A stretch of DNA of 64,000 nucleotides, from NCBI GenBank assembly GCA_964566925.1, contig CAZMIZ010000005.1:184-64183 (forward strand), given 5' to 3'. This document shows, in pieces, positions 7,519-45,781 of this stretch. A program made the position numbers and the translations under genes. Numbering within the stretch: the first letter of the stretch is position 1; the number at the start of each line of letters is the position of its first letter. The notes beneath the pieces are model-generated. The model had not been told where the DNA came from, made no database searches, and saw only the letters and a list, made by a program, of their open reading frames with translations. Source of the DNA: an uncultured Gammaproteobacteria bacterium. Lineage in GTDB: Bacteria; Patescibacteriota; Microgenomatia; PFEM01; DATLAM01.

Positions 7519-7538
7519 GATTTACCTTACGAAACACA

Positions 7539-8972
7539 ATGAAAGACTTAATTTCCCCTTTGAAAAGGAATAAAGCCCCGATTATTGGTATTGGTGTAAC
7601 CGCTTTTAATCGAATTGGGCCAGCCTTTTTTTTGAACAACTTTGAAATTATTTGCTACAAAAACGGATCTGATTTACCTTCTCTTGAGAAGTTTTGCAAA
7701 ATAATTTCCATTCAGCGTGATCTCCGCGGAGAGAACCTTGAAAGGCTTAATAGCCTGGCCCTTTTAAAACACCGAGGCGTTTTCCATTATCTTAAGAGTA
7801 AAAAGGGGATTAAGATTTTTGTTTATCGTTCAACCGAGCGGATTGATAAGATCTGCGAAGAGAACGGCTGGCAGCTTTTGGCTAATAAAGCAAGAATTAG
7901 GGATGTTTATGAGGATAAAAAGCGGTTTCGCCAGATTGGAAAGAAGGCGAAAATCGGCCTAATTGAAGGAGAAACGCTCAGGATTGATAATCTAGATAGA
8001 GACCAACTCAGGCAGTTTCAGAAGAAGTACGGCCCAAACCTAGTTTTTCAATTAACTGACATTTCCCGGGGCGGTGGCCTAGGCACATTTTTCATCAATC
8101 AGGCTCAAGATTTTGAAAATTTTTGCCAGTTCGTTCGAAAAGAAAGAAGAGAGAGAGAACTAAAAAATGTCAATGTGACTAAACGGATTCAGGGAATTCC
8201 TGCCAGCATTACCGGTTGTGTTACTCACTCTGGCGTAATTTGTAGCCCGATCCAGACCCAGATTATAGATCAGCCAGAAGTGATGGGCCCCACTAAAAGC
8301 AAGGGTAGATTTTGTGGTCATGATTGGCAGTTTAGGCATTATCAAGGCAGACTTCAAAATCAAGCAGAGAGAATCGCTAGGAGGCTAGGAGAATATATGG
8401 GTGGCCAAGGTTATAAGGGTATTTTTGGTATCGATTTGATTATTGATGAGAGGGAGGGTCGAGTTCATCCAGTTGAGTGTAATCCCCGCTACACAGGCGC
8501 TTTTCCAGTCTACACAATGCTTCAGTTACAAGCAGAGGAAATCCCTTTTGAAGCTTTTCATCTTTTGGAGTTTTTAGGAATTCCCTACGAGGTTGATGTG
8601 GAGGCGATTAACCGTTCCTATCAAAGCAAGAAGAGAGGCTCTCACCTAGTCCTTTATAATCGTGATCGGAAAAATTGGGTTAAGGCCTGGGGAAATTTAC
8701 AAGCTGGAGTTTATCGATTAGAGAATGGAAAGCTAAAATTTTTACGGGAAGGGTTTTCAGTTTTTGATATTAAGAATCAATCAGAGTTTGTTTTGACTGA
8801 CGGGGTGCCTAAGAAAGGGGATTTGGTCAAGCCAGGACTTCGCTGCGGAAAGCTGATTTTTAACAAAAGCATCCTAGGGTCAAAGGGCAGATTAACTCCA
8901 GAAGTAAAGGAGATTATTAGGCTGGTTTACAAAAGTTTGGATTTAAGGAAGACGAAATTTAAGCAGATTTAG
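7539..8972 (+). CDS. Second ATP-grasp family ligase
   Basis: 477 aa. GIFGIDLIIDEREGRVHPVECNPRYTGAFP is an ATP-grasp catalytic-loop / Mg-binding motif. Confidence 0.5.
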   Translation: MKDLISPLKRNKAPIIGIGVTAFNRIGPAFFLNNFEIICYKNGSDLPSLEKFCKIISIQRDLRGENLERLNSLALLKHRGVFHYLKSKKGIKIFVYRSTERIDKICEENGWQLLANKARIRDVYEDKKRFRQIGKKAKIGLIEGETLRIDNLDRDQLRQFQKKYGPNLVFQLTDISRGGGLGTFFINQAQDFENFCQFVRKERRERELKNVNVTKRIQGIPASITGCVTHSGVICSPIQTQIIDQPEVMGPTKSKGRFCGHDWQFRHYQGRLQNQAERIARRLGEYMGGQGYKGIFGIDLIIDEREGRVHPVECNPRYTGAFPVYTMLQLQAEEIPFEAFHLLEFLGIPYEVDVEAINRSYQSKKRGSHLVLYNRDRKNWVKAWGNLQAGVYRLENGKLKFLREGFSVFDIKNQSEFVLTDGVPKKGDLVKPGLRCGKLIFNKSILGSKGRLTPEVKEIIRLVYKSLDLRKTKFKQI

Positions 8973-9645: not shown

Positions 9646-9695
9646 AGTTTAAGTATGACAGATAAATCTGACGGCGTCAACTTGGCCCGCCTGAA

Positions 9696-9738
9696 CTTAC
9701 TTTTCGCCTTTTGGGTTCTATTCGAACACGGCTCAAAG
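9696..9738 (-). repeat. Copy (a) of the ~45-nt dispersed element; a near-exact inverted copy of the rRNA-spacer copy at 44234-44276
   Basis: cttacttttcgccttttgggttctattcgaacacggctcaaag(agcg) compared with the reverse complement of 44231-44276 (ccgctctttgagccgttttcgaatagaacccaaaggcgaaaagtaagg). Confidence 0.5.
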
Positions 9739-11119
9739 AGCGTTTTCCGGCGGGTTTGCGCCCTGTATCGAACTTTGTTCTGGTTCAGGGCTTGACAAAA
9801 AATGTCTTTTAGGCTAAAAAAAGACTACTTCTGCCCATTTTCCCTGCCTAAAATTGAGTCATTTTTCGATTCCTGCCTGGAGAGGAGTAAGAAATGCTTT
9901 TATGGGGAGCTTTTACCTTAGGTTTTTGTGTTGGCTCCATTCTTTTTTTTCATATCTTTGGCCAGGAGTATGAATAGTGGAAATTTTATAGGATTGTAAG
10001 ATCTTTAAATAATTAAGACCTGTAGTATTTAACTTATTAAATTCTTCAAGCTTAAGACAAGGCTCTCGTTTTTCTCAACTTTCACTAGTTTTAGAGAATG
10101 TTTGTCTTAGAATATTGTTCCGAGAATATCGGATTAAAGATAAAGATTTAAAAAAATCAGCCAAAATTATAGAAAACCAAAAACTAGATATTTTAATTTA
10201 TCTTAAATCATTTTTTGATATAGATTGAATAGGTGATTTTGGTCAAATTTTATAAAACTTAAATTTTATTTTTATAGGATAACAACTTTGAGTTAATTTT
10301 AGTCGACGAAATTTTCTTAATTTTTCGAAAGAGGAAAAAATAGACTATCAATTTAGGTCAAAAAGAGAATTAATATCTCAAAAAATAAAATAATAGAGCA
10401 ATAAGATTTTTAACCAAAAAAATGGACAAATTTAGTCAGTTTATTTTTTTTATTAAAATTAACAATTTTCTAGAATTTAATCCCCTTAATTGTTACTAGA
10501 AGATCTTTTATTTTCTAAATACTAAAATAAGTTGCCGGATTAAAAAAATTGATCTAAAAAAGTCCATTTTCGCCAAAGAGAGAATAGACCAGGAAATTTT
10601 ATTAATGGGGGCCTATTTTTGAAGAGTTTAATTGTTCATAATTCATTTTTTTATGGAAATATTTAGTTTTTCGTAGGTCAATTAAAGTGGCAATTTTTTT
10701 CAAAAAACAGCCCAAATCGTTTTCAATAAGCTTTTTTTGCTGAAATTTTTAGTATCCTCAGTCGTTAGTTTTTTGATCTTCTGACAGCCAATTTTTAGCT
10801 CTTTTTCGGACTAAACAGTTGAAATTATAGGACTTTTAAATAAAAGAAAAAAGAGATTAAAAAAAGAAAATAGGAAAGGGGTTTTTATTTTTGAAGAGTT
10901 TTCGATTTGGTTGATATCTAGACATTTTCATTCCCTCCGAAGTGCCCTAAAAGCCCGCTAAAAAGCCCCAAAATCGATTAAATTTTGTTTTGGGAGCACT
11001 AAAAAACTGATCTAAATTTGGCTGAAATTGCCTCTTGACAGAGAGTACCCGAATGATGGTAACATAAAAATAAACCTATAAGTATCTAATTATAAACAAG
11101 CCTTGGAGGGGAGAGGTTT

Positions 11120-14100
11120 GTGGCTAAAAACCTGCCCAGAGCGAAAAAACTTTCAATTCTCCTTTCTTTTATTTGGAAAAACCCTTCTTTTGGTTTAGAC
11201 CGGATTTCAATTGAACTTTCAATTGAACTTTCTGATAAAAAGGGCAGAAAAGTCTTTTCAAGAAGCGGAATTCAGAAAGCTTTAACCAGGCTCGGGTTAA
11301 ATACGACTAAAAAGAGGCGAGCTTGGGCAAGAGGGATAACTACCGCCGAAGCCGCAAAGAAGTTTGCTGAGCTGGTGGCAACCAAGTTTTCAGGGAGATT
11401 GACGCCTGAAAAGCGGTTAGAGATGATCAGGCTGGTTGAACAAAAAGAAATGACCGCTAGCCGGGCTGCTCAGGCCTGTGGAGTTTCCCGAAAAAGTTTC
11501 TATAAATGGCAAAAGCGCTATTTGGCTTCAGCTCCAGGTAGGGAATATCAAGCAGTTTGTGATCAAAAACCGGCTATTGAAAAACGCTGGAATCAATTAA
11601 CGAATAAGCAGGAAGAGGCCATTCTTAAAATCGTTCGGGAGCATCCAGATTATTCCACCCATAAAGTTGCGCAAATATTGGCAGATATCGGCAATCACGG
11701 AGTTCAGAACGCTTTTGAGAGGTTAAATCTTAATACCTACGAAAAACGCTTAGCCTATGCTCAAGCCCCTCAACCAGTTATCACTCCTGTTACAAGAGTG
11801 CTGGGTTGGTTTAAGTCACTCCTGGATAGAATTCCAGCTATTTCTCCTCTTCCTCCTCCAATCAAACAAAAAATTGCCACTTTAACTCATCCTTTTGCTT
11901 TTAGCCTCTTTTTTTCAATTGTTTTCTCCACTTTTTTTCTTTTTTGGTTTGATCTCATCATTCGGGCGCCCACTCTGAGTGCTAAACTTGGCTTTATTTT
12001 TGCTTCAGCTTCATTATTGGTTGGCGGGTTTTTCTTTATCTACTCAATGAAATACTACCTGACTCTAGCGATTGTTCTTTCTTTTTCTCGCCAAACCCAA
12101 GAAGAAAGGGGAGGCTACACCTTTAGCCTGAAAGGGAGAATGAATGGCCCCACTTCGCCAGGGGCTACGCGGGGTAACGGCAATAGTGGATGGTTGTTAA
12201 GAATCTTTGGTTTAGGAAACGGGAATGGCCCTGAAGAAAAGGGAAAGATAGTTCAGGCTGGTGGTCTTCAGCCTTCTTTAGATCACATTAAACTGAAGCG
12301 GTATCCTTTTGTTTCAATTCATCTGCCCTTCTTTAATGAAAAGAAGGTGGCGGAGAGGATTCTTAAAGCCTGTACGGCCATGGATTATCCCAGAGAGAGT
12401 TACGAAATTATTGTTTGTGATGATTCCAATGATGAGACTATTAATATTGTGCAAAGGTACGTAAAGAAGCACAACCAAACTCACCCCAAAGGGCCGAAGA
12501 TTAAGGTTCTTCATCGGCCCACCAGAGAGGGTTTTAAAGGTGGCGCCCTTTCTTATGCTTTGAAGAGCATGGATAAAAAGACGGAGTTCTGTGTGGTCTT
12601 TGATGCTGACTTTATCCCTTACCCAGACACTCTGGAACTGTTTGTCAAGTATTTCAAGGTGAACAATGGTCAGTCTGAGAACTACACCAGGGGCAAGATT
12701 GCCGTGGTGGGAGGTTATCAATGGCATGTTTTAAACAAATCAGAGAACTGGATCACCCGAGGAGTGAGAACGGAGTATGCTGGGAGCTACGTCATTGAAA
12801 GGCCTGGCAGAGAGATCTTGGGATTGCTAAAACAGATCTCTGGCTCAGTCTATATGATTAGAAGTGATGTCATCAAAAAGGTAGGCTGGGGTACGAGTAT
12901 TACTGAAGACTTCCAGTTAACCCTCAAGCTCTATGAGCAGGGCTACAAGGTGATCTACACCCCCTATGTTCAAGCCCCAGCCGAATGTGTTTCTACCCTG
13001 AAAAGGCTTATTAGACAACGGATGAGATGGGCCGAGGGACACAGCAACAATATTAGGAGGATGTTTTTACGACTCCTGGTTTCTCCTAAGTTGACTCTCA
13101 CAGAGAAACTAGAGCTTTTTTATCTTTCCCCTTACTATCTCCAGGCCGCCTTCTTCTTAGTCGGTACTTCCTGCTGGCTTTTAGCTGAGGCTGTTTTTAG
13201 GGTTAAGTTGCCTTTTTGGACCTCTCTTTGGGGCTGGTCTTTGGTTTTAACTAACTTTTTCTGTTTGCCCTTGGTGAATGCCGTGGGTTTGTTCCTAGAA
13301 GAAAGTGAAGAAAGAGACTATCTTGGTTTACTCTCTTTTATTTTTCTCTCCTACGTTCTCGTTCCCTTCCAGGCCTATGCTTCGGTAAAAGGCTTTCTGG
13401 AAAAAGAAGAAGGTCCTTGGTTTCGGACACCCAAGACAGGGAGGATTACCGACATCTTTACCCGGGGAAGATTCTACCGCTGGATTGCCGGAATTCTTCC
13501 AGGGAGAGGAGCTACCCCTGCCTATGCTGAGGCGACAACAGGGAAACAGCCCCCCAACTCTTATCTGGCTTTAGCGACAGCCAACAGTCAGTTTAGCTCT
13601 TTTGAAATCACGCCCAAGAGAAACCGCTTATGGGGTAAATTGGCGCTTTTGTTGGTGGCGGGAATCAGTTCAAGCCTTTCCTATTTTGGTAATCGGATTC
13701 CTCAGGGTGTGATTGCCAACCTGCCTATTCAAGCCAGAGTCGAGGTGGCTGGTTCTCAGCCTAGTTTCATAATAGATCAAGCCATTTTTTCTCAAATCCT
13801 TAGTCTGTTTAAGCCAAAGCAGGCCTTAGCAGTCACCTCTGGACTCAAGGATGCCCTTTTGGCTGGACAGCCAGTTTCCCTGGAGAACTTCAAAGGCTTG
13901 GCGCTTTTCTTAACTCTTTTAAGCTTGAGCCTTTTGGTTTATTTGCTAAAAAGAAAGAGAAGATTTGTTAAAAAACTTTTACGACCGGCTTTTGTGACCA
14001 CTCTTGTCTTAATATGGCTTTTGACCAGCTTTCCCCCTGTTTGGTTTACCCCTCGCTTTCCACCGAAAATTAAAAAAGCTCTGGCCTACGACTATGACGA

Positions 14101-16339
14101 GACTTATAGCTTTGATACTCTGGCGGCCAATGAAAACGATTTTATCTGGGATGGTCCGGACGTAGATGTTTTATCAGTAGAGAACACTGACGGTTCTTGG
14201 TGTTGGACAGATGTTGGCTCAACTTCAAGTAGCACCGGGCCGCCATCAGGAGTGGCCTGTGTTTATACGGAAACCTCATCACCAGTAGCCGTCGATGACG
14301 AGTTTTATATGACTCTTGCCGAGGCGAATGAAGTTAGTGCTACTACCTATGGTATCTATGTGACCTTCGATACCTGTACCTATGGCAATACATCAGCCCA
14401 TTTATATTTTGAAGCCTGGAATGGCTCTGGTTGGCAACCGATAGATGATTGGGCCGGTAATTCAACCACGACCTTTACATCTAGGGGTCCTTATGATTTT
14501 ACGGCATATAGCAATTCAGATTTTAGTATCAGGTTTCGAACTGTGGTAGCTGGGACGACATACACGAACGACATGGCCGTTGATGAGGTTCGAATTTATG
14601 GGGATTCGGCTAATGCTTCTCCGGCCGCCCCGACACTTCATAACGTTCCTTTTCCTAATGAAATGGTCTATGATACTACCCCTAACTTCGAATTTACCGG
14701 TTCGGACCCTGACGGCACGGCGGATATCATTTATCACATTCAAGTAGACGATGATCAGGCGTTTGGCAGCGTGATAGTTGAATGTGAATCAGATACCTCT
14801 TGTGCCACCGGCGATGGTGGTTTTACTAATACGGTGACTGGAGGTGATACTAGCCCGTTTAATGAGGGAGAAAAGATTAGATTTACGCCGACGACGACCC
14901 TTGCTAGTGGGACAACTTACTGGTGGCGAGTCAGGGCCGAGGATGATTCAGGCGGGGGTGGTTCAGGAAATTATGGTGATTGGACAACAGCCATTAGTTT
15001 CACCCCAAACTCTGGCTCTAGTCCTTATTCTGAGTGGTTCCAGACCACCGATGAACAGTTTGCTACTGGAACGCTGTCAGGCACAACGATAAGTGGATCG
15101 GATTCAGTAGAATTAGGCACCGCGATTACGGCCACTGGTGGGACAACCAGCGAATCAGGCGGTTACAAATTCCATACTTTTACCAGTAGTGGAACGTTTG
15201 AAGTGACGGCCGGATCAGGCGATGTTGAGGTGCTGGTGGTTGGTGGTGGCGCAGGAGGGGGGACCGGGGGAACCGCTAGCCGAGGTGGAGGAGGTGCTGG
15301 TGGGATTGTCTATGATTCAGCTTATGCTGTCGTAGTAGATACTTATACCGTGACAGTAGGCGTGGGGAGTGCCGGAGCGTCAGGCACCTCAACGGCGTCA
15401 GATAATGGAGGAGATTCAGTATTTGATGATTTGACTGCATTAGGTGGAGGAGGAGCAGGAATACATTTAGGCGTAGGAAAGGATGGTGGTTCTGGTGGTG
15501 GTGGTAGTGGTTGGTCCAGTACTGCGGGCGGTTCAGGTCTCCAGCCGGGATCAGCATCTGGGGGTTATGGTAATGATGGTGGGACTGCTAATAGCAATAG
15601 CGCTGCTCCTGGTGGTTCTGGTGGGGGAGGTGGAGCAGGGGCTACTGGTAGTAATGGTGCAGATGGCACAGGCGTGGGGGGCGCCGGAGGAGCCGGATTA
15701 GAGTTTTCTCAATTTAGCAGTGTCGGTGGTTCACCGGCTGGCTGGTTCGGTGGCGGTGGCGGTGGCGGAGCAGCCTCTGGAGGAACAGCTGGATCTGGTG
15801 GACAGGGAGGTGGAGGGGCTGGAGGAGCTGGAACAACTGGCAGTAATGGTGTAGCTAATACCGGTGGGGGTGGTGGTGGTTCAACAAGCACTGGTGGGTC
15901 TGGGGGTTCGGGAATTGTTATTATTAGATATCCTACTTCTGGTGGTTCTTCGGGTACTATCCAGTCAACTCAAATTGACTTTGGTTGGTTTAGTGGTTCA
16001 CCCTCGGATTGGAACGAAGTATATGTGGGGGTAACAACGACCAACGGCAGTATCACCATCGATATCCTGGATGAAAACGAATCTGATACTGGTTTAGGCT
16101 GCACTATTAGCGGTGGGAGTAGTTCTTGTACGGTTGATATTTCGAGTTTAGATCCTGCGGGGGATGAGACCCAAATTTACATTTTGGCGACGCTTAATGA
16201 TGTGAGCGGGACACCCTATCTTAATGACTGGTTAGTGTCTGTTCCGGAAAATTTATGGCTATTTTTCGGCTTAGGCCTTTTTTTACCAGGCTTTATTAGA
16301 CGGAGAAAAAGGAAATTATTAGAAAGATTAATTAAGTAA
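11120..16339 (+). CDS. Giant multidomain membrane protein with five parts: IS-transposase-like HTH N-terminus, processive family-2 glycosyltransferase, multi-TM region, Gly-rich ectodomain, and a C-terminal VPEN-TM-RRRKRK sorting-signal-like tail
   Basis: 1739-aa continuous ORF with a GTG start and GGAGGGGAGAGG RBS. The HTH region is ...SRAAQACGVSRKSFYKWQKRY. GT2 motifs are VCDDSND (DD), VFDADF (DAD), SITEDFQ (TED) and QRMRWAEGH (QxxRW). The C-terminal Gly-rich region ends in GSGIVIIRY, and the final tail is SVPENLWLFFGLGLFLPGFIRRRKRK. Confidence 0.75.
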   Translation: MAKNLPRAKKLSILLSFIWKNPSFGLDRISIELSIELSDKKGRKVFSRSGIQKALTRLGLNTTKKRRAWARGITTAEAAKKFAELVATKFSGRLTPEKRLEMIRLVEQKEMTASRAAQACGVSRKSFYKWQKRYLASAPGREYQAVCDQKPAIEKRWNQLTNKQEEAILKIVREHPDYSTHKVAQILADIGNHGVQNAFERLNLNTYEKRLAYAQAPQPVITPVTRVLGWFKSLLDRIPAISPLPPPIKQKIATLTHPFAFSLFFSIVFSTFFLFWFDLIIRAPTLSAKLGFIFASASLLVGGFFFIYSMKYYLTLAIVLSFSRQTQEERGGYTFSLKGRMNGPTSPGATRGNGNSGWLLRIFGLGNGNGPEEKGKIVQAGGLQPSLDHIKLKRYPFVSIHLPFFNEKKVAERILKACTAMDYPRESYEIIVCDDSNDETINIVQRYVKKHNQTHPKGPKIKVLHRPTREGFKGGALSYALKSMDKKTEFCVVFDADFIPYPDTLELFVKYFKVNNGQSENYTRGKIAVVGGYQWHVLNKSENWITRGVRTEYAGSYVIERPGREILGLLKQISGSVYMIRSDVIKKVGWGTSITEDFQLTLKLYEQGYKVIYTPYVQAPAECVSTLKRLIRQRMRWAEGHSNNIRRMFLRLLVSPKLTLTEKLELFYLSPYYLQAAFFLVGTSCWLLAEAVFRVKLPFWTSLWGWSLVLTNFFCLPLVNAVGLFLEESEERDYLGLLSFIFLSYVLVPFQAYASVKGFLEKEEGPWFRTPKTGRITDIFTRGRFYRWIAGILPGRGATPAYAEATTGKQPPNSYLALATANSQFSSFEITPKRNRLWGKLALLLVAGISSSLSYFGNRIPQGVIANLPIQARVEVAGSQPSFIIDQAIFSQILSLFKPKQALAVTSGLKDALLAGQPVSLENFKGLALFLTLLSLSLLVYLLKRKRRFVKKLLRPAFVTTLVLIWLLTSFPPVWFTPRFPPKIKKALAYDYDETYSFDTLAANENDFIWDGPDVDVLSVENTDGSWCWTDVGSTSSSTGPPSGVACVYTETSSPVAVDDEFYMTLAEANEVSATTYGIYVTFDTCTYGNTSAHLYFEAWNGSGWQPIDDWAGNSTTTFTSRGPYDFTAYSNSDFSIRFRTVVAGTTYTNDMAVDEVRIYGDSANASPAAPTLHNVPFPNEMVYDTTPNFEFTGSDPDGTADIIYHIQVDDDQAFGSVIVECESDTSCATGDGGFTNTVTGGDTSPFNEGEKIRFTPTTTLASGTTYWWRVRAEDDSGGGGSGNYGDWTTAISFTPNSGSSPYSEWFQTTDEQFATGTLSGTTISGSDSVELGTAITATGGTTSESGGYKFHTFTSSGTFEVTAGSGDVEVLVVGGGAGGGTGGTASRGGGGAGGIVYDSAYAVVVDTYTVTVGVGSAGASGTSTASDNGGDSVFDDLTALGGGGAGIHLGVGKDGGSGGGGSGWSSTAGGSGLQPGSASGGYGNDGGTANSNSAAPGGSGGGGGAGATGSNGADGTGVGGAGGAGLEFSQFSSVGGSPAGWFGGGGGGGAASGGTAGSGGQGGGGAGGAGTTGSNGVANTGGGGGGSTSTGGSGGSGIVIIRYPTSGGSSGTIQSTQIDFGWFSGSPSDWNEVYVGVTTTNGSITIDILDENESDTGLGCTISGGSSSCTVDISSLDPAGDETQIYILATLNDVSGTPYLNDWLVSVPENLWLFFGLGLFLPGFIRRRKRKLLERLIK
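12317..13071 (+). repeat. 755-bp block 100% identical to 20509-21263, inside the GT2 domains of the two giant paralogs
   Basis: Base-by-base identity against an offset of 8192 bp. Flanking sequence is only ~75-85% identical. The antisense ORFs 12314-12727 and 20413-20919 encode identical peptides as a by-product. Confidence 0.8.
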
Positions 16340-16347: not shown

Positions 16348-16959
16348 ATGGAGTCTATGGGAAGCTATAAAAAGAAGAAAGCCGACCGTGTCGGCCAAAA
16401 GCTTACTTTTAAATTGCTATTGGTGGGATTAAGCCTGATCTTAATGGCTTTGCCTCTGGTGGCGGCTGGTAGCTCTTTCTTAACTGATTTTTTAAACCAC
16501 GCCAACTGGTATCAACCAATCCAAAAATATATAGTTCCTTTTGAAGCCAAGTTAGTCGCCGCGGCTATCTATCCTCTAGGGATTAAAAGCAGAGTTAGTC
16601 CCAGTCAAACCACAGTTGCTTTTTATATGATCAAAGAAGATTCAGTGGTCCCGGTCGATTTGGCTTGGAATTGTTTGGGCTGGCAAAGCATGCTTTTGTT
16701 AATCGTTTCCTTAATAGCCGGATTAAGAGGTAATTTTACCAATATTTCAAGGCTGGAATGTATTGTCTTTGGTTTTTTTGGCACCCTTTTAATTAATGTT
16801 TTCCGGATGAGCCTGGTAGCGGCTGGAATTTATTATATCAACACCTTCTTTGCTATGATTGTCCATGATTATCTAATGGCTTTAATGGCCATTGCCTGGC
16901 TGATTTTCTTCTGGTGGTTTAGCTATGCCTTTATTCTGGAGGAGAAAGTAGATAGTTAG
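16348..16959 (+). CDS. Exosortase/archaeosortase-family-like polytopic membrane protein (candidate processing enzyme for the VPE-CTERM tails)
   Basis: 203 aa with multiple TM helices. The NCLGWQSM motif (compare exosortase CSGLRSL, the active-site Cys) and LINVFRMSL motif (compare the conserved N..R) are present. The gene lies 8 nt downstream of giant gene 1. Confidence 0.5.
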   Translation: MESMGSYKKKKADRVGQKLTFKLLLVGLSLILMALPLVAAGSSFLTDFLNHANWYQPIQKYIVPFEAKLVAAAIYPLGIKSRVSPSQTTVAFYMIKEDSVVPVDLAWNCLGWQSMLLLIVSLIAGLRGNFTNISRLECIVFGFFGTLLINVFRMSLVAAGIYYINTFFAMIVHDYLMALMAIAWLIFFWWFSYAFILEEKVDS

Positions 16960-16999: not shown

Positions 17000-17368
17000 A
17001 TGAAGATTAAGACTTATAAAGATCTAACTGTTTGGCAGAAGTCTTTTAAGTTAGCTCTTGAGGTTTATAAAGTTACCAAAAAATTTCCTAGATCAGAGCT
17101 TTACGGCCTGACTTCTCAAATAAGAAGGGCCGCTTTTTCTATTCCGTCTAACATTGCCGAAGGATATGCCCGTCATCGTTTAGCCGAATATATTCAGTTT
17201 TTAAGAATTGCCTTTGCTTCAGGTGCCGAACTTGAAACACAGTTGTTAATTGCTAAAGAAACAAACTTATTGAGGGGTAAAGATTTTCAACGACTAAACA
17301 GCCTTTTAAGTGAAGTCATGAAGATGCTTAACGTGTTAATGAAAAAACTAAAAGAGGCAAAACATTAA
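17000..17368 (+). CDS. Four-helix-bundle protein (TIGR02436; the family named '23S rRNA-intervening-sequence protein')
   Basis: 122 aa. Has the hallmark motifs DLTVWQKS...L, PRSELYGLTSQIRRAA.SIPSNIAEGY and ..Ar.SGAELETQL. Confidence 0.75.
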   Translation: MKIKTYKDLTVWQKSFKLALEVYKVTKKFPRSELYGLTSQIRRAAFSIPSNIAEGYARHRLAEYIQFLRIAFASGAELETQLLIAKETNLLRGKDFQRLNSLLSEVMKMLNVLMKKLKEAKH

Positions 17369-17417: not shown

Positions 17418-18857
17418 ATGCCTATTTATCCCGCCCAGACATCAATGATGACCATCCAGATTGCCTTGGCCCGCTTTTTAGAGCAGGGGGGTGATATTCT
17501 GGGCAATTATCCTTACTGGTATTTAGGAACGACTCCTTATCGCTATTTAACCGGCCCGATTTTACCTTTTCTCCTGGCTGGCATTCACCAAGCTCTACCC
17601 CAGCTTTCATTATTTACTATTTTCTATTTACTAATTACTCTTACCTGGTTATTGGGTGCCGGAGGAGTTTACTTGTTAATCAGAGAACTGAGGGGAAAGC
17701 GTCTTAGCGCCGTTCTCGCGGCCCTTCTTTATCTTTTTGGCCCAGTTATACCCTTGACCTTCCGTTTCTCTAACGGCCTTTCTCTAATAGCCTTTTCTTT
17801 TTTACCTTTTATCCTGGCTCTTTATTCGCGTTTCCTAAAAGGGTGGAGTCGGAAGCTAACTGCTCTTTTATCTTTGGCGATTACTTTTCTTTTCCTTTTA
17901 GATTCCCTGGTTATCCCCACCATGGTTTTAGGGATGGCCGCTGTTTTCCTAAGCCAAGTTGGCTGGAAAAAACCCGAGGAGAAGATAAAAAGAACCCTAG
18001 TCCCTATTGCCTATTGCCTAATCCTTGCTACCCTCTGGTACACCCCTGGCTATTGGCTGGCTCTTTTAGGGGCGCCTTCTTTAGCCGGTAAAGGATTGGG
18101 TGAGGTGATGATTTGGTTAGGCAAACTTCTGCCCACGATAATTGCTTTTAGCGTTGCCCTTGTTTCGGTTAAATTTTTCAAAAAGAAAAACCAGCTACGC
18201 GATTTTTGTTTTTATTGGCTTTTGGTATTTCTTTGCCTATCTTTGCTTAGGTTTTTGGCAGACCCTGATTTTTGGTTAGACTGGATTGCTTATGGCACCG
18301 AGATCCAGTTTGGCCTGGCAATAGCTCTGGCTTTGATTGTCCCTGCGCTCTTCTCAAAACTATTCACTCTTCGCTATTCACTCTTCGCTATTATCTTTGC
18401 CTATTGCCTAATGCCTATTGCCTGGCTATTTCTCTTTAACCAATATGTTCTTAGCACTCTCCAAACAGACATTACCCAAACAGTAGAGTACCGAATTAGC
18501 AAACAATTATCAGAGACTGCTGACCCTGGCGAGCGAGTCTTCTTATCTGGAACCACTGCTTTCTGGTTAAATGCTTTTCCTGCCAGCTGGCGGATTCCCC
18601 AGGTCCGAGGTGGGGTTGATCAAGCGTCAATTGACCCCGAATGGCGAAGAGCGACTTGGGAAATAAGAGAGGGGGTTGATCTTGAGAAAACTCTTGAATG
18701 GCTAAAAAAGCTTAGGGTTGCCTATGTTGTGGTTCATACCCCAGATTCAGAAGAGTTTTATCATGATTTTGTTTATCCGGAGAAGTTTGAGGGAGGAGAA
18801 GGGTTAGAAAAGATTTACGATCAAAACGGAGATAGAATCTACCGGGTAATGAATTGA
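17418..18857 (+). CDS. Polytopic membrane protein with a soluble C-terminal domain, possibly a GT-C-type glycosyltransferase
   Basis: 479 aa with more than 10 hydrophobic helices. Lies in the context of the glycan locus. The coding sequence contains reiterated cctattgcc motifs. Confidence 0.45.
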   Translation: MPIYPAQTSMMTIQIALARFLEQGGDILGNYPYWYLGTTPYRYLTGPILPFLLAGIHQALPQLSLFTIFYLLITLTWLLGAGGVYLLIRELRGKRLSAVLAALLYLFGPVIPLTFRFSNGLSLIAFSFLPFILALYSRFLKGWSRKLTALLSLAITFLFLLDSLVIPTMVLGMAAVFLSQVGWKKPEEKIKRTLVPIAYCLILATLWYTPGYWLALLGAPSLAGKGLGEVMIWLGKLLPTIIAFSVALVSVKFFKKKNQLRDFCFYWLLVFLCLSLLRFLADPDFWLDWIAYGTEIQFGLAIALALIVPALFSKLFTLRYSLFAIIFAYCLMPIAWLFLFNQYVLSTLQTDITQTVEYRISKQLSETADPGERVFLSGTTAFWLNAFPASWRIPQVRGGVDQASIDPEWRRATWEIREGVDLEKTLEWLKKLRVAYVVVHTPDSEEFYHDFVYPEKFEGGEGLEKIYDQNGDRIYRVMN

Positions 18858-18859
18858 AA

Positions 18860-19162
18860 TCATTTAATCAATCCGAAGATAATGGCTGAGGCGATGAGAA
18901 CAGCTACTAAGGAACTGATAATTGCCGCAACAACTAACTGATTGGCAATCGCCGATAATCTCTTGGCAGGAGTTTCTTTAGCTCCTTTGCGGGCTCCCAT
19001 TATTTCGTTAAGTTGCTTTTTGGTGTAATAGCGACGATTAGTCGGGGAGCGAATCGCTTTTATTTTTCCTCTTTTTCCCCAGCGCCGGAGAGTGTCTCGA
19101 GAGACACCAAGATATTTAGCGGCTTCACCGATGGAGACCCATTGAGCTTTATCTTCAGCCAT
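18860..19162 (-). CDS. Membrane-tethered excisionase/MerR-type HTH DNA-binding protein
   Basis: 100 aa. The HTH_17-like region is SIGEAAKYLGVSRDTLRRWGKRGKIKAIRSPTNRRYYTKKQL, followed by a C-terminal TM helix LVVAAIISSLVAVLIASAIIFGLIK. Divergent from giant gene 2. Confidence 0.6.
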   Translation of the reverse strand: MAEDKAQWVSIGEAAKYLGVSRDTLRRWGKRGKIKAIRSPTNRRYYTKKQLNEIMGARKGAKETPAKRLSAIANQLVVAAIISSLVAVLIASAIIFGLIK

Positions 19163-19243: not shown

Positions 19244-19269
19244 TGTCAAGGCGAAAATGACCCTTGACA
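19244..19269. promoter_or_regulatory. Perfect 8-bp inverted repeat TGTCAAGG-N10-CCTTGACA overlapping a TTGACA -35-like hexamer, between the HTH gene and giant gene 2
   Basis: tgtcaaggcgaaaatgacccttgaca. A candidate operator for the adjacent HTH protein. No clean -10 box could be found. Confidence 0.3.
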
Positions 19270-19395
19270 TTATATATCCAGGTAATGTTAACATGAGAAA
19301 ATAAGACTAGCAAAGATATGCAAAGGTCTTAAAGTGTTTACATTAAGCCTGCCCTGGGACTAGTCAGCCGAGTCAGGCAGGAATAGGGAAAGTCC

Positions 19396-22300
19396 GTGCC
19401 CGCCAAACTTAATAAGAAAGAAAGATTAAGACTCATTGAACGAGTAATCATTAAGGGCGAACCAGTTACTAAGGTTTGTCAAGAAGCTAAAATTTCTCGA
19501 ACTCTTTTTTATCGTTGGCTGAAACGCTACTCGGCTGAAGGAAAAGTTACTTCTAGAGCTCCAGGGAGGCCTATTAAAAAAACTCCTCCTAAAATCAAGA
19601 AAAAGATAACTCCATTTAAAAAACTTTCTCCTCAAAAAAAGCTAGAAATGGTGGAGCAGGTGGTCAAATACCATCAACCGGTTAGTAAGGTTTGTCTCGA
19701 TTTTCGTCTCTCCAGACCCAGCCTCTATAAATGGCTTAAACGCTATCATTTGGCCCAGAAAGATAAAAAACTTGAGGCCATGGAGGATAAGAAACCGCAA
19801 ATAAGTCGTTATTCCCGCCAAACTCCAGCAATGTATGAAAAAGTTGTTCTAGATGCGGTGGCTCAACACCCTCAACTTGGAGTTAAAAGAATTCTTGAAG
19901 TTTTACCAAGAATTGCCGATAAACCCATCATCGGCTATCATGGGGTACAAAACATCCTTCGTCGGCATGATTTAAACACCTTTCAAAAGCGATTAGATTA
20001 TGCTCAAACTCAAATCACGCCGGTAACTAGGCTTATCTCATTTTTTGAAGAACTTGGCGCTCGCTTCATTGTTTTGCCAGCTGAGACTCGAACTAAGACA
20101 ATTAGATTTGCGGCGATAGCTCTTTTGACTACTTTTTCGACCATTTTTGTTTTAGGGGTTCTAGGCCATTTTGCCATCATTGTCGGTGCCGCTCCAATTC
20201 CGTCCCGAATTGGGCTTTTTCTGGCGACAAGCGCCCTTTTAATTGGTTCTTTCTTTTTTGCTTATTCGATTAAATATTACTTGACCTTAGCGGTGGTTCT
20301 TTCTTTTTCCCGCCAAGCAGGAGAGGAGGGAATGGGAATTGGTTTGAAAACTGAAATTAAAAAGACTAGCCGCGATTTGCCAGCTAGCGGCTGGCTTCAA
20401 AAAATATTTGGGCTAGGGAATGGAGAAGAAAGGCAGGAAACGATTCAAGCTGGAGGTCTTCAGCCTTCTTTGGATCATATCAAGCTGAAGCGGTATCCCT
20501 TTGTTTCGATTCATCTGCCCTTCTTTAATGAAAAGAAGGTGGCGGAGAGGATTCTTAAAGCCTGTACGGCCATGGATTATCCCAGAGAGAGTTACGAAAT
20601 TATTGTTTGTGATGATTCCAATGATGAGACTATTAATATTGTGCAAAGGTACGTAAAGAAGCACAACCAAACTCACCCCAAAGGGCCGAAGATTAAGGTT
20701 CTTCATCGGCCCACCAGAGAGGGTTTTAAAGGTGGCGCCCTTTCTTATGCTTTGAAGAGCATGGATAAAAAGACGGAGTTCTGTGTGGTCTTTGATGCTG
20801 ACTTTATCCCTTACCCAGACACTCTGGAACTGTTTGTCAAGTATTTCAAGGTGAACAATGGTCAGTCTGAGAACTACACCAGGGGCAAGATTGCCGTGGT
20901 GGGAGGTTATCAATGGCATGTTTTAAACAAATCAGAGAACTGGATCACCCGAGGAGTGAGAACGGAGTATGCTGGGAGCTACGTCATTGAAAGGCCTGGC
21001 AGAGAGATCTTGGGATTGCTAAAACAGATCTCTGGCTCAGTCTATATGATTAGAAGTGATGTCATCAAAAAGGTAGGCTGGGGTACGAGTATTACTGAAG
21101 ACTTCCAGTTAACCCTCAAGCTCTATGAGCAGGGCTACAAGGTGATCTACACCCCCTATGTTCAAGCCCCAGCCGAATGTGTTTCTACCCTGAAAAGGCT
21201 TATTAGACAACGGATGAGATGGGCCGAGGGACACAGCAACAATATTAGGAGGATGTTTTTACGGTTAATGTTGGGAAGGGAAAAGAGAGATGGTCAAGGA
21301 CGGAAAACTGGTTGGATTCCCAGCCCTTTAACTTTAGGAGAGAAACTAGAGCTTCTTTATTTAACTCCTTATTATCTTCAGGCTTTTTTCTTTTTGGCGG
21401 GGACCCTCTCCTGGCTTTTAGCCGAAGCTGTTTTTAGGGTTAAGTTGCCTTTTTGGACCTCTCTTTGGGGGTGGTCTTTGGTTTTAACCAACTTCTTTTG
21501 TTTACCTCTGGTCAATGCGGTTGGTTTGTTCTTAGAAGAGAGCGAGGAAAGAGATTACTTAGGTATCTTTTCGTTTACCATTCTTTCTTACGTTTTAGTT
21601 CCTTTCCAGGCCTATGCCTCAGTTAAAGGTTTTCTAGAGAAGGAAGAAGGACCCTGGTTTCGGACGCCTAAAACGGGAAGAATTACCGATATCTTTACCC
21701 GAGGGAGATTTTATAGATGGATTGCCGGGATCTTGCCGGGGAGAGGAGCTGTCCCTGCCTATGCTGAGGCAACAACGGAGAAACATCTCTCTAACTCTTA
21801 TCTAGCCTTAGCAACCGCTAACCATCGCTTTAACTCTTTTGAGATTAGGCCCAAGAGAAACCGCTTTTGGGGTAAGTTGGCCCTTTTTTTGGTGGTAGCC
21901 ATCAATTCCCTTCTTTCTTTTTTTGGTAACCAGATTCCTCAGGGAGCAATCACCAATCTGCCTATCCAAGCGAGAGTGGAAGTGATTAGTTCCCAGCCTA
22001 GCCTACCAATCAATCAGGCTACTCTTTCCCAAATCCTTAGCCTGTTTAAACCAAGACAAGCCTTGGCGGCTACCTCTGGTCTTAAGGAGGCTCTTTTAGC
22101 TGGTGAGCCGGTTTCCTTGGAGAACTTCAAAGGCTTGGTTCTTTTCTCAACCCTTTTAAGCTTAAGTTTTTTGATTTATTTGGCCAGAAAGAAAAGAACC
22201 TTTGTCAAAAAACTTTTGCGGCCGATTTTTGTTTTTGTTTTGGTTGCCTCCTGGCTTCTAACCAGTTTTCCGGCTATTTGGTTTAACCCCCGTTTCCCTC

Positions 22301-24828
22301 CGAAAATTAAAGAAGTTGAAGCGACTGATTATGACGATGTAGTTTTAGCCACCAATGGGGGGCCTGATTACAGAATCCAATTTAACGGCAATATTACTGA
22401 AGAAATTAAGAGTCAAGGAACTTCAGGGGCCCCGGATAGTTACGTGACCAACATTATTCCCAACGATGATGGACAATGCGCAGATTATGCCGCTTCGGCA
22501 GAAACGGTTATTACTAATGCGAGCGATGTTAACAGTAGTACCACCACCAGAAAAACAGTTTCTTTTTGGGTGGAAATTGACACCTTTGGAACAGGTACAG
22601 GCTCTAATGCCAGAAACATCTGGGAAGAGGGAGGGGCAACAAATTGGTTCGGCGCCTACACGGCCAACAATGATGAACTTTATATCATTATCGGTGAGAG
22701 TGGTGCCAATAAAGGGTATTGTTATACTGACGGATTGTCAACCGGAACACTTTATCATGTGGTGATGCAATGGCAGGGGTCTGATGACGCGATGGAATTA
22801 TGGATCAACGGCTCTTTAGTTGATTCTACTACCGCCTCAATAGGTTCAGAGTTAAGTTCGCATACCGGAGACTGGGAAATTGGCGGCAATGCTGAGTCTT
22901 TCGACCACACCGACACTGACATCGGCCTACTATTTGACGGAAAAATAGCTGACTACTCTTACTGGGCGGAGGCAGCCGATTTTTTAACGGAAGCGGAAAT
23001 CGTGGCTATTTATGAAGCCGGGGCAGTGGTTGCCCCCTCCGCCCCGACTCTTTATAACGATGACGGCGGCTCCAATCAAATCGCTTTTAATAATATTAGG
23101 GAGAATGATACTTCCCCCATTATCCGGGCTTCAGCCACCCACGATACCACCTTTAATACTTTTTTCGTCGAATTTAACACTGCCTCAGATTTCAGCGGGA
23201 CGGCTTACACCGAAACCTTCTCTGGGACTTACTCATCAGGGACTGCCTACAATCTCCAAACCACTGGTTCTTTAAATTTGCCCTCAAACGACGGAGTGAC
23301 TTATTACGTTCGTGTTAAGGCTTCGGATGATGGGGGGACTGATTATGGTGATTGGTCAACGACTTTGGCCTGCTGTGGCACCTGGACTTATACGTATACT
23401 AGTTCAGCTGGAGATTCTGAGTGGCTTCAAACAACCGATGAGCAGTTCGACACAGGGACGATGGTATCGACGCAAACAAGCGGTTCTGATTCGGTGGAAA
23501 TAGTGGGAAGCGAGACGACTATTTATCTTACTTCTGGTACGACTTGGAATGTGCCAGCTGACTGGAATTCGTCTAATAATACTATTCGCGCAATCGGAGC
23601 AGGTGGAGACGGGGGTTTGTCTACTGCGAGTTCTAATTCTGGTGGCGGTGGGGGTGGTGGTGAATATCGGGCGGCAACCAACGTCACTCTGACACCTAGT
23701 TCAACGGTGGACATTAATATTCCCTCTGGTGGAGATGGCAGCTCTGCTGATGGTGCCTGGATCGAAAACAATAGCGATACTATTGTAGTTGAAGCTAAGA
23801 ATGGTGGTAATGCTTCAGGTACCACCGCTGGTAGTGGCGGAACAGGCGGAACCGGAACAGCCGCAAATTATGATGGCGGTGCTGGAGGTGCAGGTGCTTC
23901 TAATTCAACAGCGTCAGGCGGTGGGGGTGGCGGCTCGGCAGGACCGAGCGGAGCAGGTAAAGCAGGCGGCGATGGTGTTGGTTCTACTAACTATGGTGCT
24001 GGAGGAGGTGGCGGCAGTAATGGTGGATCTTCAACTGTCGGTGAAACACCAACCGGCCCTGACGGCGGGGATGGAGGTGTAGGTACTGGCGGCACTGGTG
24101 GAGGCGCTGGTGGAGTTGAACATACAAGTGGCGGCTCTAATGGAACTGATGGCGGCGGCGGTGGCGGCGGCGCTGATACTCAGTCAAGTACTCCTTCCCC
24201 AGGTGGTAATGGTGCTTGCGACACTGCTTGGGACTCAACTCATGGAGCCTGCGGCGGTGGTGGTGGCGGCGGTGGCGCCAGTGGAACTGCTGGCACTGCT
24301 GATAGAGACGGAGGAACAGGCGGAACTTATGGAGGCGGCGGTGGCGGCTGCGGCATATCAGGTTCCTTAGATACCGGAGAATGCGATGGCACTGGAGTAG
24401 GTGGTCAGGGGATTATCGTAATCACCTATACTCCTGATGCTTCAAGCGGCACGATTATGTCGCCGGAAATTGACTATGACTGGTTTGATGGGGCTTCAGC
24501 CTGGAATGATGTTTACTGGAGCGAGGATGAAACCCATGGAACGATTATGGTTCAGGTTTATTACAATGATTGCGGCACGATTATTCCTGATGAAGATTTA
24601 AGCGGCAATTCCAGTGGATTTACCACTGGTCCGATTGACATCTCCGGTCTTTCTACTTCGACTTATAATGAAATTTGCTTCAAAGCCACTTTAGCCGATT
24701 CCGGGGGGAGTCCCTATCTCGAAGATTGGGGGGTGAGTGTCCCAGAAAGCTTATGGCTGTTTTTTGGCTTGGGCCCTTTTTTACCATTTGTGTCCAGGTT
24801 AAAAAGAAAGAGAAGAAAAAAGTTGTGA
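19396..24828 (+). CDS. Second giant paralog: two transposase-like HTH repeats, a processive GT2, a multi-TM region, LamG/ConA-like plus Gly-rich ectodomains, and a VPES-TM-KRKRRKK tail
   Basis: 1810 aa with a GTG start. HTH repeats are ..ISRTLFYRWLKRY and ..LSRPSLYKWLKRY. The GT2 core is identical to paralog 1 over 755 bp. The LamG-like region is TVSFWVEID...MELWINGSLVDS. The Gly-rich region ends in GQGIIVITY, and the tail is SVPESLWLFFGLGPFLPFVSRLKRKRRKKL. Confidence 0.75.
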   Translation: MPAKLNKKERLRLIERVIIKGEPVTKVCQEAKISRTLFYRWLKRYSAEGKVTSRAPGRPIKKTPPKIKKKITPFKKLSPQKKLEMVEQVVKYHQPVSKVCLDFRLSRPSLYKWLKRYHLAQKDKKLEAMEDKKPQISRYSRQTPAMYEKVVLDAVAQHPQLGVKRILEVLPRIADKPIIGYHGVQNILRRHDLNTFQKRLDYAQTQITPVTRLISFFEELGARFIVLPAETRTKTIRFAAIALLTTFSTIFVLGVLGHFAIIVGAAPIPSRIGLFLATSALLIGSFFFAYSIKYYLTLAVVLSFSRQAGEEGMGIGLKTEIKKTSRDLPASGWLQKIFGLGNGEERQETIQAGGLQPSLDHIKLKRYPFVSIHLPFFNEKKVAERILKACTAMDYPRESYEIIVCDDSNDETINIVQRYVKKHNQTHPKGPKIKVLHRPTREGFKGGALSYALKSMDKKTEFCVVFDADFIPYPDTLELFVKYFKVNNGQSENYTRGKIAVVGGYQWHVLNKSENWITRGVRTEYAGSYVIERPGREILGLLKQISGSVYMIRSDVIKKVGWGTSITEDFQLTLKLYEQGYKVIYTPYVQAPAECVSTLKRLIRQRMRWAEGHSNNIRRMFLRLMLGREKRDGQGRKTGWIPSPLTLGEKLELLYLTPYYLQAFFFLAGTLSWLLAEAVFRVKLPFWTSLWGWSLVLTNFFCLPLVNAVGLFLEESEERDYLGIFSFTILSYVLVPFQAYASVKGFLEKEEGPWFRTPKTGRITDIFTRGRFYRWIAGILPGRGAVPAYAEATTEKHLSNSYLALATANHRFNSFEIRPKRNRFWGKLALFLVVAINSLLSFFGNQIPQGAITNLPIQARVEVISSQPSLPINQATLSQILSLFKPRQALAATSGLKEALLAGEPVSLENFKGLVLFSTLLSLSFLIYLARKKRTFVKKLLRPIFVFVLVASWLLTSFPAIWFNPRFPPKIKEVEATDYDDVVLATNGGPDYRIQFNGNITEEIKSQGTSGAPDSYVTNIIPNDDGQCADYAASAETVITNASDVNSSTTTRKTVSFWVEIDTFGTGTGSNARNIWEEGGATNWFGAYTANNDELYIIIGESGANKGYCYTDGLSTGTLYHVVMQWQGSDDAMELWINGSLVDSTTASIGSELSSHTGDWEIGGNAESFDHTDTDIGLLFDGKIADYSYWAEAADFLTEAEIVAIYEAGAVVAPSAPTLYNDDGGSNQIAFNNIRENDTSPIIRASATHDTTFNTFFVEFNTASDFSGTAYTETFSGTYSSGTAYNLQTTGSLNLPSNDGVTYYVRVKASDDGGTDYGDWSTTLACCGTWTYTYTSSAGDSEWLQTTDEQFDTGTMVSTQTSGSDSVEIVGSETTIYLTSGTTWNVPADWNSSNNTIRAIGAGGDGGLSTASSNSGGGGGGGEYRAATNVTLTPSSTVDINIPSGGDGSSADGAWIENNSDTIVVEAKNGGNASGTTAGSGGTGGTGTAANYDGGAGGAGASNSTASGGGGGGSAGPSGAGKAGGDGVGSTNYGAGGGGGSNGGSSTVGETPTGPDGGDGGVGTGGTGGGAGGVEHTSGGSNGTDGGGGGGGADTQSSTPSPGGNGACDTAWDSTHGACGGGGGGGGASGTAGTADRDGGTGGTYGGGGGGCGISGSLDTGECDGTGVGGQGIIVITYTPDASSGTIMSPEIDYDWFDGASAWNDVYWSEDETHGTIMVQVYYNDCGTIIPDEDLSGNSSGFTTGPIDISGLSTSTYNEICFKATLADSGGSPYLEDWGVSVPESLWLFFGLGPFLPFVSRLKRKRRKKL
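20509..21263 (+). repeat. Partner of the 755-bp identical block at 12317-13071
   Basis: See 12317-13071. Confidence 0.8.
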
Positions 24829-42380: not shown

Positions 42381-43849
<1,469 letters not shown>

Positions 43850-44011
43850 AGGAGTTGTTCGGCCCCGCGGAGCTTTATGCGAAGTGGGGGAAACACCCCG
43901 AGATTTTGTTAATTTTGCTCGCTAACTAAAATTGACATCTTCCTACCACTTCCTGGTTGTTGAGAACTGTAGTTAATTTACAAATAGTTCGAAATCCTGC
44001 CAAAATTGCTC

Positions 44012-44051
44012 CTTGAGCCGTTTTCGAATAGAACCCAAAGGCGAAAGGTAA
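44012..44051 (+). repeat. Copy (c) of the ~45-nt element
   Basis: cttgagccgttttcgaatagaacccaaaggcgaaaggtaa. Confidence 0.5.
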
Positions 44052-44078
44052 AATTAGTAGGATCAAGAGAACAAAGAG

Positions 44079-44100
44079 TCCGCCACATGGCGGATTTTTT
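44079..44100 (+). terminator. Hairpin-family copy 2 plus T-run (terminator- or processing-like) between 16S and tRNA-Ile
   Basis: tccgccacatggcgga followed by tttttt. Confidence 0.35.
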
Positions 44101-44127
44101 GTATTTATGATAAAATTAAGGTGATCT

Positions 44128-44199: not shown

Positions 44200-44233
44200 C
44201 AAGGAGGTCTCAGGCCTGCCCCGTCAAACCGCT

Positions 44234-45742: not shown

Positions 45743-45781
45743 AAAAGAGAGCGATTTCTTAGGGGTTTATTTTAACTTTGC

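Follow-up and report, generated by a model that had tools for sequence, protein, structure and literature searches.

The 64-kb stretch of contig CAZMIZ010000005.1 analysed here (GenBank assembly GCA_964566925.1; hereafter the window) contains two long open reading frames (ORFs) on the + strand, ORF A (11120..16339, 1739 aa) and ORF B (19396..24828, 1810 aa), both of which start at GTG and are separated by ~3 kb. Each encodes, in a single frame, a transposase-type helix-turn-helix (HTH) array, here referred to as the head, and a glycosyltransferase family 2 (GT2) synthase, confirming the observation made in the initial annotation. From sequence comparisons, we consider it rather probable that the head is a membrane-tethered autoregulator, and probably a repressor, that acts on the spacer and the −10 region of the promoter of its own gene. 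Both proteins are members of a large and undescribed family present in genomes of the Microgenomates group (Patescibacteria, or candidate phyla radiation, CPR). In A, the head is followed by a membrane hairpin, the GT2 synthase, more membrane helices, an extracytoplasmic region of ~760 aa that contains a Gly_rich_2 domain, and a C-terminal tail. The order is the same in B, except that its head is made up of two HTH_28 domains and a winged HTH. Neither paralog has a stop or a frameshift between the HTH and the glycosyltransferase (GT), and a Shine-Dalgarno-like GGAGGGG, read from the sequence (11105..11111, +), lies 8 nt ahead of the GTG of A.

All motifs quoted in the initial annotation were recovered, GVSRKSFYKWQKRY in A and ISRTLFYRWLKRY and LSRPSLYKWLKRY in B, as was the second HTH motif (HGVQN...LNTY/F.KRL.YAQ) in both, and Pfam and NCBIfam HTH profiles matched above their cut-offs. 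The head of A begins with a distal winged-HTH remnant (11156..11332, aa 13-71; H32-like, ...SGIQKALTRLGLNTTKKRRAWA) that aligns to aa 150-205 of B. This is followed by an HTH_28/HTH_Tnp_1-type HTH (11396..11542, aa 93-141), for which the Pfam families HTH_23, HTH_28, HTH_29 and HTH_Tnp_1 scored above cut-off and whose recognition helix is SRKSFY (11486..11503, aa 123-128, with K125 as residue 3), and by an HTH_32-like winged HTH (11603..11764, aa 162-215) with the helix HGVQNAF, in which Q196 lies. B has a first HTH_28-type HTH (19411..19545, aa 6-50; helix SRTLFY, aa 34-39), a second of HTH_28/HTH_Tnp_1 type (19621..19791, aa 76-132; helix SRPSLY, aa 106-111) and a winged HTH (19828..20010, aa 145-205; helix HGVQNIL, with Q185), all of them, like those of A, on the + strand. 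Pfam HTH_32 itself matched below its cut-off in both proteins (aa 127-189 of A and aa 110-187 of B). The head is built from a bipartite, 'paired-like' repeating unit in which a winged HTH_32 comes after an HTH_28, and this unit is found across the family as (HTH_28-HTH_32)x2, as HTH_28-HTH_28-HTH_32 (B), as remnant-HTH_28-HTH_32 (A, and also P0001 and other relatives) or as a single unit.

The transposase-like nature of these HTHs, as initially annotated, was borne out, but the closest insertion sequence (IS) family is IS481, and the IS3 and IS630 families named there matched more weakly. IS481 was the top NCBIfam transposase match (NF033577; 54.9 bits for A and 85.2 for B), over profile positions 1-112 of 284, which correspond to the DNA-binding part, and the whole-protein scores are far below the cut-off of 224. 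Of the features that define IS481, the N-terminal HTH region is present in A and B and the rve domain is absent; indeed, Pfam gave no rve/DDE match in either protein, as had been claimed. Judging by sequence, the head is probably a domesticated, DDE-less transposase DNA-binding array of the IS481/IS3 type. Its pI is 10.3-10.4 and its net charge +24 to +32, and its best-conserved residues sit in the recognition helices (S-R-x-x-F-Y-K-W-x-K-R-Y and H-G-V-Q-N). An AlphaFold2 model of aa 1-225 of B (predicted local distance difference test, pLDDT, 92.6) had as its nearest structures in Foldseek the paired domains of Pax5/Pax6 (probability 0.98-0.99), TnsB, Mu, SETMAR and Tc3, with weak E-values; all are DNA-bound bipartite domains. 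Sequence and model thus suggest that the head is a DNA binder.

We examined how widely the fusion occurs among relatives. A search with aa 1-800 of B returned 530 relatives at E ≤ 1e-10, and in ~110 of the best 120 clusters a single protein contains both the HTH and the GT2 Pfam families. A scan of GTDB species, each represented by one genome, confirmed 269 loci; 76 loci were fetched, and the covariation described below was drawn from the best 80 of at least 269 confirmed loci. Genomes often carry two or three paralogs, sometimes in tandem like A and B. The informatively named records are nearly all from the Microgenomates group (Woese-, Davies-, Gottesman-, Chisholm- and Curtissbacteria, and CPR3); many records of metagenome-assembled genomes bear other or generic labels, to which we gave no weight. 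The members themselves are labelled in databases only as 'glycosyltransferase' or 'helix-turn-helix domain-containing protein'. In the fetched loci, the HTH is in the same ORF for 76 of the 88 GT ORFs. Those without it are contig-end truncations and one small head-less group (L067, L070, L072, L074), in which a small excisionase-type HTH gene, of a different type from the head, lies directly upstream of the GT gene in L067, in L072 and, for one of the two GTs, in L074 (where the small gene is at 9829-10014).

The converse search led to the same association. We searched 1.84 billion representatives with a profile built on a single HTH unit, which detected 256 clusters (50% identity) at E ≤ 1e-30; this exhaustive search replaced a word-indexed one with the HTH unit alone, which had found one protein. 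Among the 150 proteins listed, the 123 that were new relative to the earlier searches were checked for a GT domain: it was present in all 76 proteins of at least 400 aa, and the 47 without it were all shorter than 400 aa. Because all 76 longer proteins carry a GT, this HTH clade is a feature of the synthases rather than of active transposons. The proteins without a GT are probably fragments, or else rare heads encoded on their own, like the one in L041 (4411-5493). This L041 protein has two HTH units and one membrane helix but no GT, and its gene has its own GTTAACA promoter element (see below), with a full-length synthase gene just downstream. Together with the initial argument that the two paralogs differ and yet keep the fusion, which holds given that the heads of A and B are only ~36-40% identical and differ in HTH number, these data establish that the fusion is real and under selection. 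Apparent in-frame stops in L001, L002, L004, L008 and L010 were ruled out, as these genes open at CTG and contain no stops; the apparent CTG starts (at 3303, 2336, 1697, 6001 and 6001, respectively) are 5-6 nt after a perfect AAGGAGG. Non-ATG starts (CTG, or GTG as in A and B) seem common in the synthase family and may keep translation low.

Alignment of the regions upstream of 74 of these genes revealed a shared element, cTTGACA-N5-TACCCA-N5-7-G(G/T)TAACA(T), whose spacer block is T(A/T)CCCA. The promoter and predicted operator of A is at 11035..11065 (+ strand; TTGACA 11035-11040, TACCC 11046-11050, GGTAACA 11058-11064) and that of B at 19264..19294 (+ strand; TTGACA 19264-19269, TATCC 19275-19279, TGTTAACA 19286-19293). 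In both, the heptamer overlaps a −10-like TAACAT at a spacing of 19 nt from TTGACA, and it is because of this spacing that a standard sigma-70 scan calls neither site. Across the family the element is 27-30 nt long with spacers of ~16-19 nt, for which reason we rejected a MerR-type 19-nt-spacer mechanism as a general rule. Matches to the element in the window are exactly two (0.09 expected), one before A and the other before B. In 1.67 Mb of loci searched on both strands there are 59, and 51 of these lie ≤400 nt upstream of an HTH-bearing ORF; the other eight are mostly before neighbouring genes of the cluster, for example the gene for a 23S rRNA intervening sequence (23S-IVS) protein in L005 and, in L008, a homolog of the ORF at 17418-18857, which has its own copy of the element. 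Viewed from the genes, the element precedes 51 of 75 related HTH ORFs and none of five head-less relatives. That it might be a general promoter of these genomes was also rejected, given that the other promoters in the window are canonical (TTGACA-N17-TATAAT) and that so many of the matches precede HTH ORFs. Words shared by the A and B upstream regions were AT-rich low-complexity matches only, and the operator was seen only on comparing the 76 loci; no Rfam family was detected in the leaders at gathering thresholds.

A second TGTTTACA element is present in the B leader (19335..19342, + strand), 42 nt after the first, and ~11 related loci have a second copy 40-45 nt after the first. The sequence TGTTWACA occurs three times in the whole window, two of them in the promoter and leader of B (at 19286 and 19335). 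Separately from the element, family genes show a 6- to 11-fold excess of CTGCC(C/A) at their start codons or immediately downstream, and since the reading frames differ (L-P, S-A, T-A, P-A) this suggests a signal at the nucleotide level. Sites of this type are CCTGCCC at ~11141-11147 in A, and CCTGCC (19348-19353) and AGGCAGG (19378-19384) in the leader of B, which holds a CCTGCC...GGCAGG hairpin. The region upstream of A (9646-11119) is 1.47 kb long, AT-rich (~33% GC) and has no ORF of at least 60 aa, a length that is unusual for a small genome.

The sequence of the element varies with that of the recognition helices in the protein encoded downstream. The third residue of the HTH_28 helix (S-R-x) goes together with the second base of the heptamer, without exception: all 24 genes that encode K or R have G there, and all 40 that encode T, V, P, N, F or A have T or C (GTTAACA and variants). 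A, accordingly, pairs SRKSFY with GGTAACA, and B pairs SRTLFY/SRPSLY with TGTTAACA. In the winged-HTH helix (H-G-V-x-N) it is the fourth residue that varies in step with the DNA, here with the spacer block, which lies 11-12 nt farther upstream: Q is found with TA(C/T)CC (35 genes), Y or F with TTCCC (seven) and W with TTAGNA (three), a match that none of 10,000 permutations within the HTH_28 class reached. The two helix classes occur in all combinations, each DNA block following its own helix. In a tree of the heads with the helices masked, the K/R state changed ~8 times and the G state likewise, and some clusters hold both states with matching operators, as in L054_10480, which has SRF and TCTAACA amid SRK/GGTAACA genes. 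Lys and Arg usually contact G, Gln contacts A, and aromatic residues contact the methyl group of T; the helix-base pairings fit these preferences. The covariation suggests that the head reads the promoter of its own gene and, with the conserved promoter element, strengthens the idea of a one-component DNA-binding enzyme proposed in the initial annotation.

The GT2 domain follows a hydrophobic anchor, as previously described, and this consists of two membrane helices in both proteins: a hairpin of hydrophobic helices detected by hydropathy in A (11888..12037, + strand, aa 257-306), and one of two long helices detected by AlphaFold2 and hydropathy in B (20080..20310, + strand, aa 229-305). The catalytic domain itself spans 12311..13246 in A (+ strand, aa 398-709; DDS, DAD, TED and QRMRW motifs) and 20503..21420 in B (+ strand, aa 370-675). 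Pfam GT2 families scored above cut-off in both, and the CDDSND, FDADF, SITEDF and QRMRW motifs present in A and B are invariant across 71 relatives. An AlphaFold2 model of aa 1-800 of B (pLDDT 82.4) contains, in order, three helical domains of small size, a pair of long membrane helices, the GT and further membrane helices; its top match in Foldseek was BcsA (E 2e-16), followed by hyaluronan synthases (HAS) and PcManGT. The scores of named synthase equivalogs were not reached (PgaC_IcaA, 85 bits for a cut-off of 422; CelA, 74 for 699; NodC, 23 for 550). By their motifs and modelled fold, A and B are membrane-embedded processive GT2 polysaccharide synthases, BcsA/HAS-like and outside the named equivalogs. 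With two helices between them, the head and the GT would both be cytoplasmic in the model, a topology that would make DNA access possible for the head.

In the mechanism that we favour, the head, held at the membrane by the synthase, would bind the promoter from which it is itself expressed. There the T(A/T)CCCA spacer block would be recognised by the winged HTH and the G(G/T)TAACA heptamer, which overlaps the −10 at a distance of one helical turn, by HTH_28, in the manner of bipartite paired-like domains. Proteins with an additional HTH_28, B among them, also have an additional TGTTWACA in the leader, which that domain may use. Negative autoregulation would be the most likely outcome, because the sites cover the spacer and the −10. 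Transposase N-termini act in cis on their own ends, and action in cis on the parent gene is plausible here because the head emerges first, during transcription and translation of a very long membrane protein (1,700-3,600 aa) that has yet to be completed and inserted. We infer from sequence comparisons that the head binds DNA, in which direction it regulates and that it acts in cis.

Several points weigh against autoregulation by the head, beginning with the fact that the whole case rests on sequence. As the last HTH is only ~10-20 residues from the membrane helices, DNA would need to be brought up to the membrane. Of the 75 HTH ORFs, 24 are not preceded by a strict match to the element, although many of them have degenerate versions, and a TACCC-like block is missing in eight of 43 Q-type genes. 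Part of the conservation of the heptamer would be plain promoter function, since it overlaps the −10 read by the sigma factor, and the head-less genes compared were only five and form one group. The covariation may partly reflect shared descent, the promoter and head DNA being adjacent and hence co-inherited, and the head tree is a crude one obtained by unweighted pair group (UPGMA), identity-based clustering. Finally, there is a second candidate binder, a small excisionase-type HTH protein with a membrane helix that is encoded beside B and in at least 13 loci.

It is possible, although we hold it to be less likely than autoregulation as such, that the promoter and head together constitute a domesticated left end of an IS, in which a former terminal repeat with its promoter would have become an operator bound co-translationally in cis. 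Each gene copy would then shut off once one protein is being made, which would provide paralog-specific, self-limiting control of surface-polymer synthases in bacteria with very few conventional regulators. The helix-base pairings would in that event amount to a small recognition code, combinatorially diversified, that prevents cross-talk between paralogs, and the GT bodies would meanwhile be kept alike through gene conversion. Some ISs encode regulators, such as IS1 InsA and IS911 OrfA, that bind the end overlapping the transposase promoter. By analogy, the binding proposed for A and B would overlap the promoter of their own gene and might occur in cis. The head also shares with IS481/IS3 transposases an HTH_28/HTH_Tnp_1 plus HTH_32 unit, but the family differs from them in having no DDE/rve and no evident transposon ends, in the frequent duplication of the HTH unit, and in that this clade was found only on synthases.

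The second candidate binder leads to an alternative that we regard as unlikely, namely that another factor reads the promoter, for instance an alternative sigma factor or the small HTH protein of excisionase/MerR type, while the head tethers the synthase to the nucleoid, positions it or binds distant sites. The gene next to B (18860..19162, − strand) encodes a 100-aa excisionase/MerR-type HTH protein with a C-terminal membrane helix (TIGR01764, 37.1 bits for a cut-off of 28.8); it is divergent from B, is mostly divergent from the synthase gene in the 13 loci where it occurs, and has its own canonical promoter (19249-19221, minus strand). The head-less relatives that have an excisionase-type HTH gene upstream likewise link such proteins to the synthase family. 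Moreover, MerR-type promoters have a long spacer and need an activator that binds it, and the 19-nt spacers of A and B resemble these. However, the small gene is in only 13 of 76 loci, compared to an element that precedes at least 51 genes; it is the fused head, and not a separate protein, whose residues covary with the two promoter bases; and with family spacers of 16-19 nt a MerR-like mechanism would not be general.

For A only, a different explanation is suggested by an inverted repeat. The initial annotation had reported no terminal inverted repeats, which is correct for B, around which we found none of ≥14 nt, but not fully so for A, where a perfect 18-nt inverted repeat encloses precisely the promoter and the entire head (left arm, TTAAAGTGGCAATTTTTT, 10682..10699; right arm, 11868..11885, inside codons 250-255); no repeat longer than 15 nt arose in 300 shuffles. 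The segment between the arms could be an invertible or mobile on-off cassette, or the head may have been replaced recently and the repeat be a recombination scar. In other bacteria, surface polysaccharide loci such as those for Bacteroides capsules are controlled by promoters that invert between flanking inverted repeats, and the head and the GT body of A do have different histories. An 820-bp block of the GT core (12252..13071 in A and 20444-21263 in B, + strand) is 99% identical between the paralogs, with eight nucleotide differences and an identical encoded protein, and has flanks that are 79% identical, which suggests that the GT core underwent gene conversion between A and B. When the genes are clustered by their GT domains, the two types of head are intermingled; with the shared block and the divergence of the heads, this suggests that GT bodies are homogenised within lineages and that promoter and head persist as a matched unit. 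We nevertheless consider a cassette improbable. Nothing comparable to the repeat was found in B or in 66 relatives, so that a head-bracketing repeat was rejected as a family feature; no recombinase gene was identified next to the repeat of A; and the opposite strand does not encode an alternative head. Moreover, such a cassette would be compatible with autoregulation by the head rather than opposed to it.

A slightly more improbable alternative is that the head no longer binds DNA and has become a protein-protein module for oligomerisation or gating, with a role like that of the PilZ domain in BcsA. HTH domains are sometimes reused for protein contacts; the head gave weak matches to the IS481 leucine-zipper family (Pfam, E 0.01), and it is very near the membrane. 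Against this, the head is strongly basic, its recognition helices are its best-conserved part and covary with promoter bases, and its nearest structures are all DNA-bound domains. Lastly, the transposase type of the HTHs and the AT-rich non-coding region upstream of A might point to an artefactual fusion (misassembly, frameshift, recent IS insertion or pseudogene), but this is refuted by the hundreds of independent assemblies that keep the fusion, as do two diverged paralogs within the window, and it is further contradicted by the lack of a DDE domain and by the Shine-Dalgarno sequence and promoter directly before the head.

The transmembrane transcription regulators ToxR, CadC, TcpP and VtrA have been surveyed (PMC10269533), and the words glycosyl, transposase and Patescibacteria are all absent from that survey. 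As in ToxR-type regulators, A and B combine in one polypeptide a cytoplasmic N-terminal DNA-binding domain (predicted) and transmembrane helices, but the head is a transposase-type bipartite HTH array (HTH_28/HTH_32) instead of an OmpR winged helix, and in place of a periplasmic sensor the remainder of the family proteins is a polytopic enzyme, of 1,000-3,600 aa. Trigger enzymes offer another parallel. PutA is an enzyme with a DNA-binding domain and represses its own operon; similarly, A and B would each be enzyme and proposed repressor of their own gene in one polypeptide, with the membrane as part of the logic. PutA is, however, a peripheral protein that switches between DNA and membrane and uses a ribbon-helix-helix, whereas A and B would be permanently integral and have a transposase-derived DNA-binding domain. 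With BcsA, PgaC/IcaA, hyaluronan synthase and NodC they share the GT2 fold, the DDS/DxD/TED/QxxRW motifs and flanking membrane helices. They differ from BcsA, which has a C-terminal PilZ domain that binds cyclic di-GMP, in having an N-terminal DNA-binding head instead, and from known GT2 synthases in their very large extracytoplasmic C-terminal region and sorting-signal-like tail. With Pax and the Tc1/mariner domains (Tc3, Mos1, SETMAR) the head shares two linked HTH subdomains, which in the head would likewise each address one major groove, about one turn apart; over ~120 columns, Pax5/Pax6 and the head model superpose with a root-mean-square deviation of 3.6-4.8 Å at 11-16% identity and with weak E-values, and the resemblance is one of fold and binding mode, not of family membership. 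A and B are therefore outside the ToxR family, the named synthase equivalogs and the IS families, and we found no description of an HTH-synthase fusion in the literature searched.

The match between head and operator, and the architecture itself, will be unexpected for specialists. Patescibacteria/CPR bacteria are uncultured, have tiny genomes with few recognisable regulators, and rely on the cell surface for interaction with their hosts. For their envelope synthesis, the family offers a testable circuit with a predicted operator and predicted specificity residues, and testing it needs only the 215-aa domain and short DNA fragments, and no culture. If autoregulation by the head is correct, it would provide a plain example from bacteria of how a transposase DNA-binding domain, perhaps along with its site, was domesticated as a gene-specific regulator, and a polytopic enzyme would join the short list of membrane-tethered transcription regulators.

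The C-terminal tails of A and B are alike. That of A (~16232-16336) reads VPENLWLFFGLGLFLPGFIRRRKRK and is composed of VPE, a hydrophobic stretch and RRRKRK, and that of B (~24718-24825) reads VPESLWLFFGLGPFLPFVSRLKRKRRKK, with VPE, a hydrophobic helix and an Arg/Lys cluster; the consensus in the family is VPE...PFIP. These tails resemble a PEP-CTERM sorting signal, although no PEP-CTERM model matched. Directly 3' of A is a gene (16348..16959, + strand) for a 203-aa polytopic membrane protein of the exosortase/archaeosortase family (TIGR04178, 24.8 bits for a cut-off of 23), a homolog of which adjoins the synthase in 39 of 76 loci. This protein is likely the partner of the VPE tail, and the synthase itself may be an exosortase substrate.

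Other genes near A and B recur in related loci. Between A and B is the gene for a '23S rRNA intervening sequence protein' (17000-17368; PF05635, E 1e-39), homologs of which adjoin the synthase in L005 and L056; in L005 the gene lies between the promoter element and the synthase gene. Two polytopic membrane proteins of 479 and 440 aa (17418-18857 and 24844-26166), with no Pfam or NCBIfam match, are syntenic with the synthase in 32 and nine loci, respectively. Upstream of the cluster, at 6223-8972, are two ATP-grasp genes, one of them 'sugar-transfer associated' (PF14397, E 5e-61). The window also includes an rRNA operon (16S, tRNA-Ile, tRNA-Ala, 23S, 5S) at 42381-49626, with ORFs of 246 aa (44408-45148) and 163 aa (45251-45742) between tRNA-Ile and tRNA-Ala; its 23S gene may hold an insertion, because the match spans 3052 nt, compared to the 2925 positions of the model.

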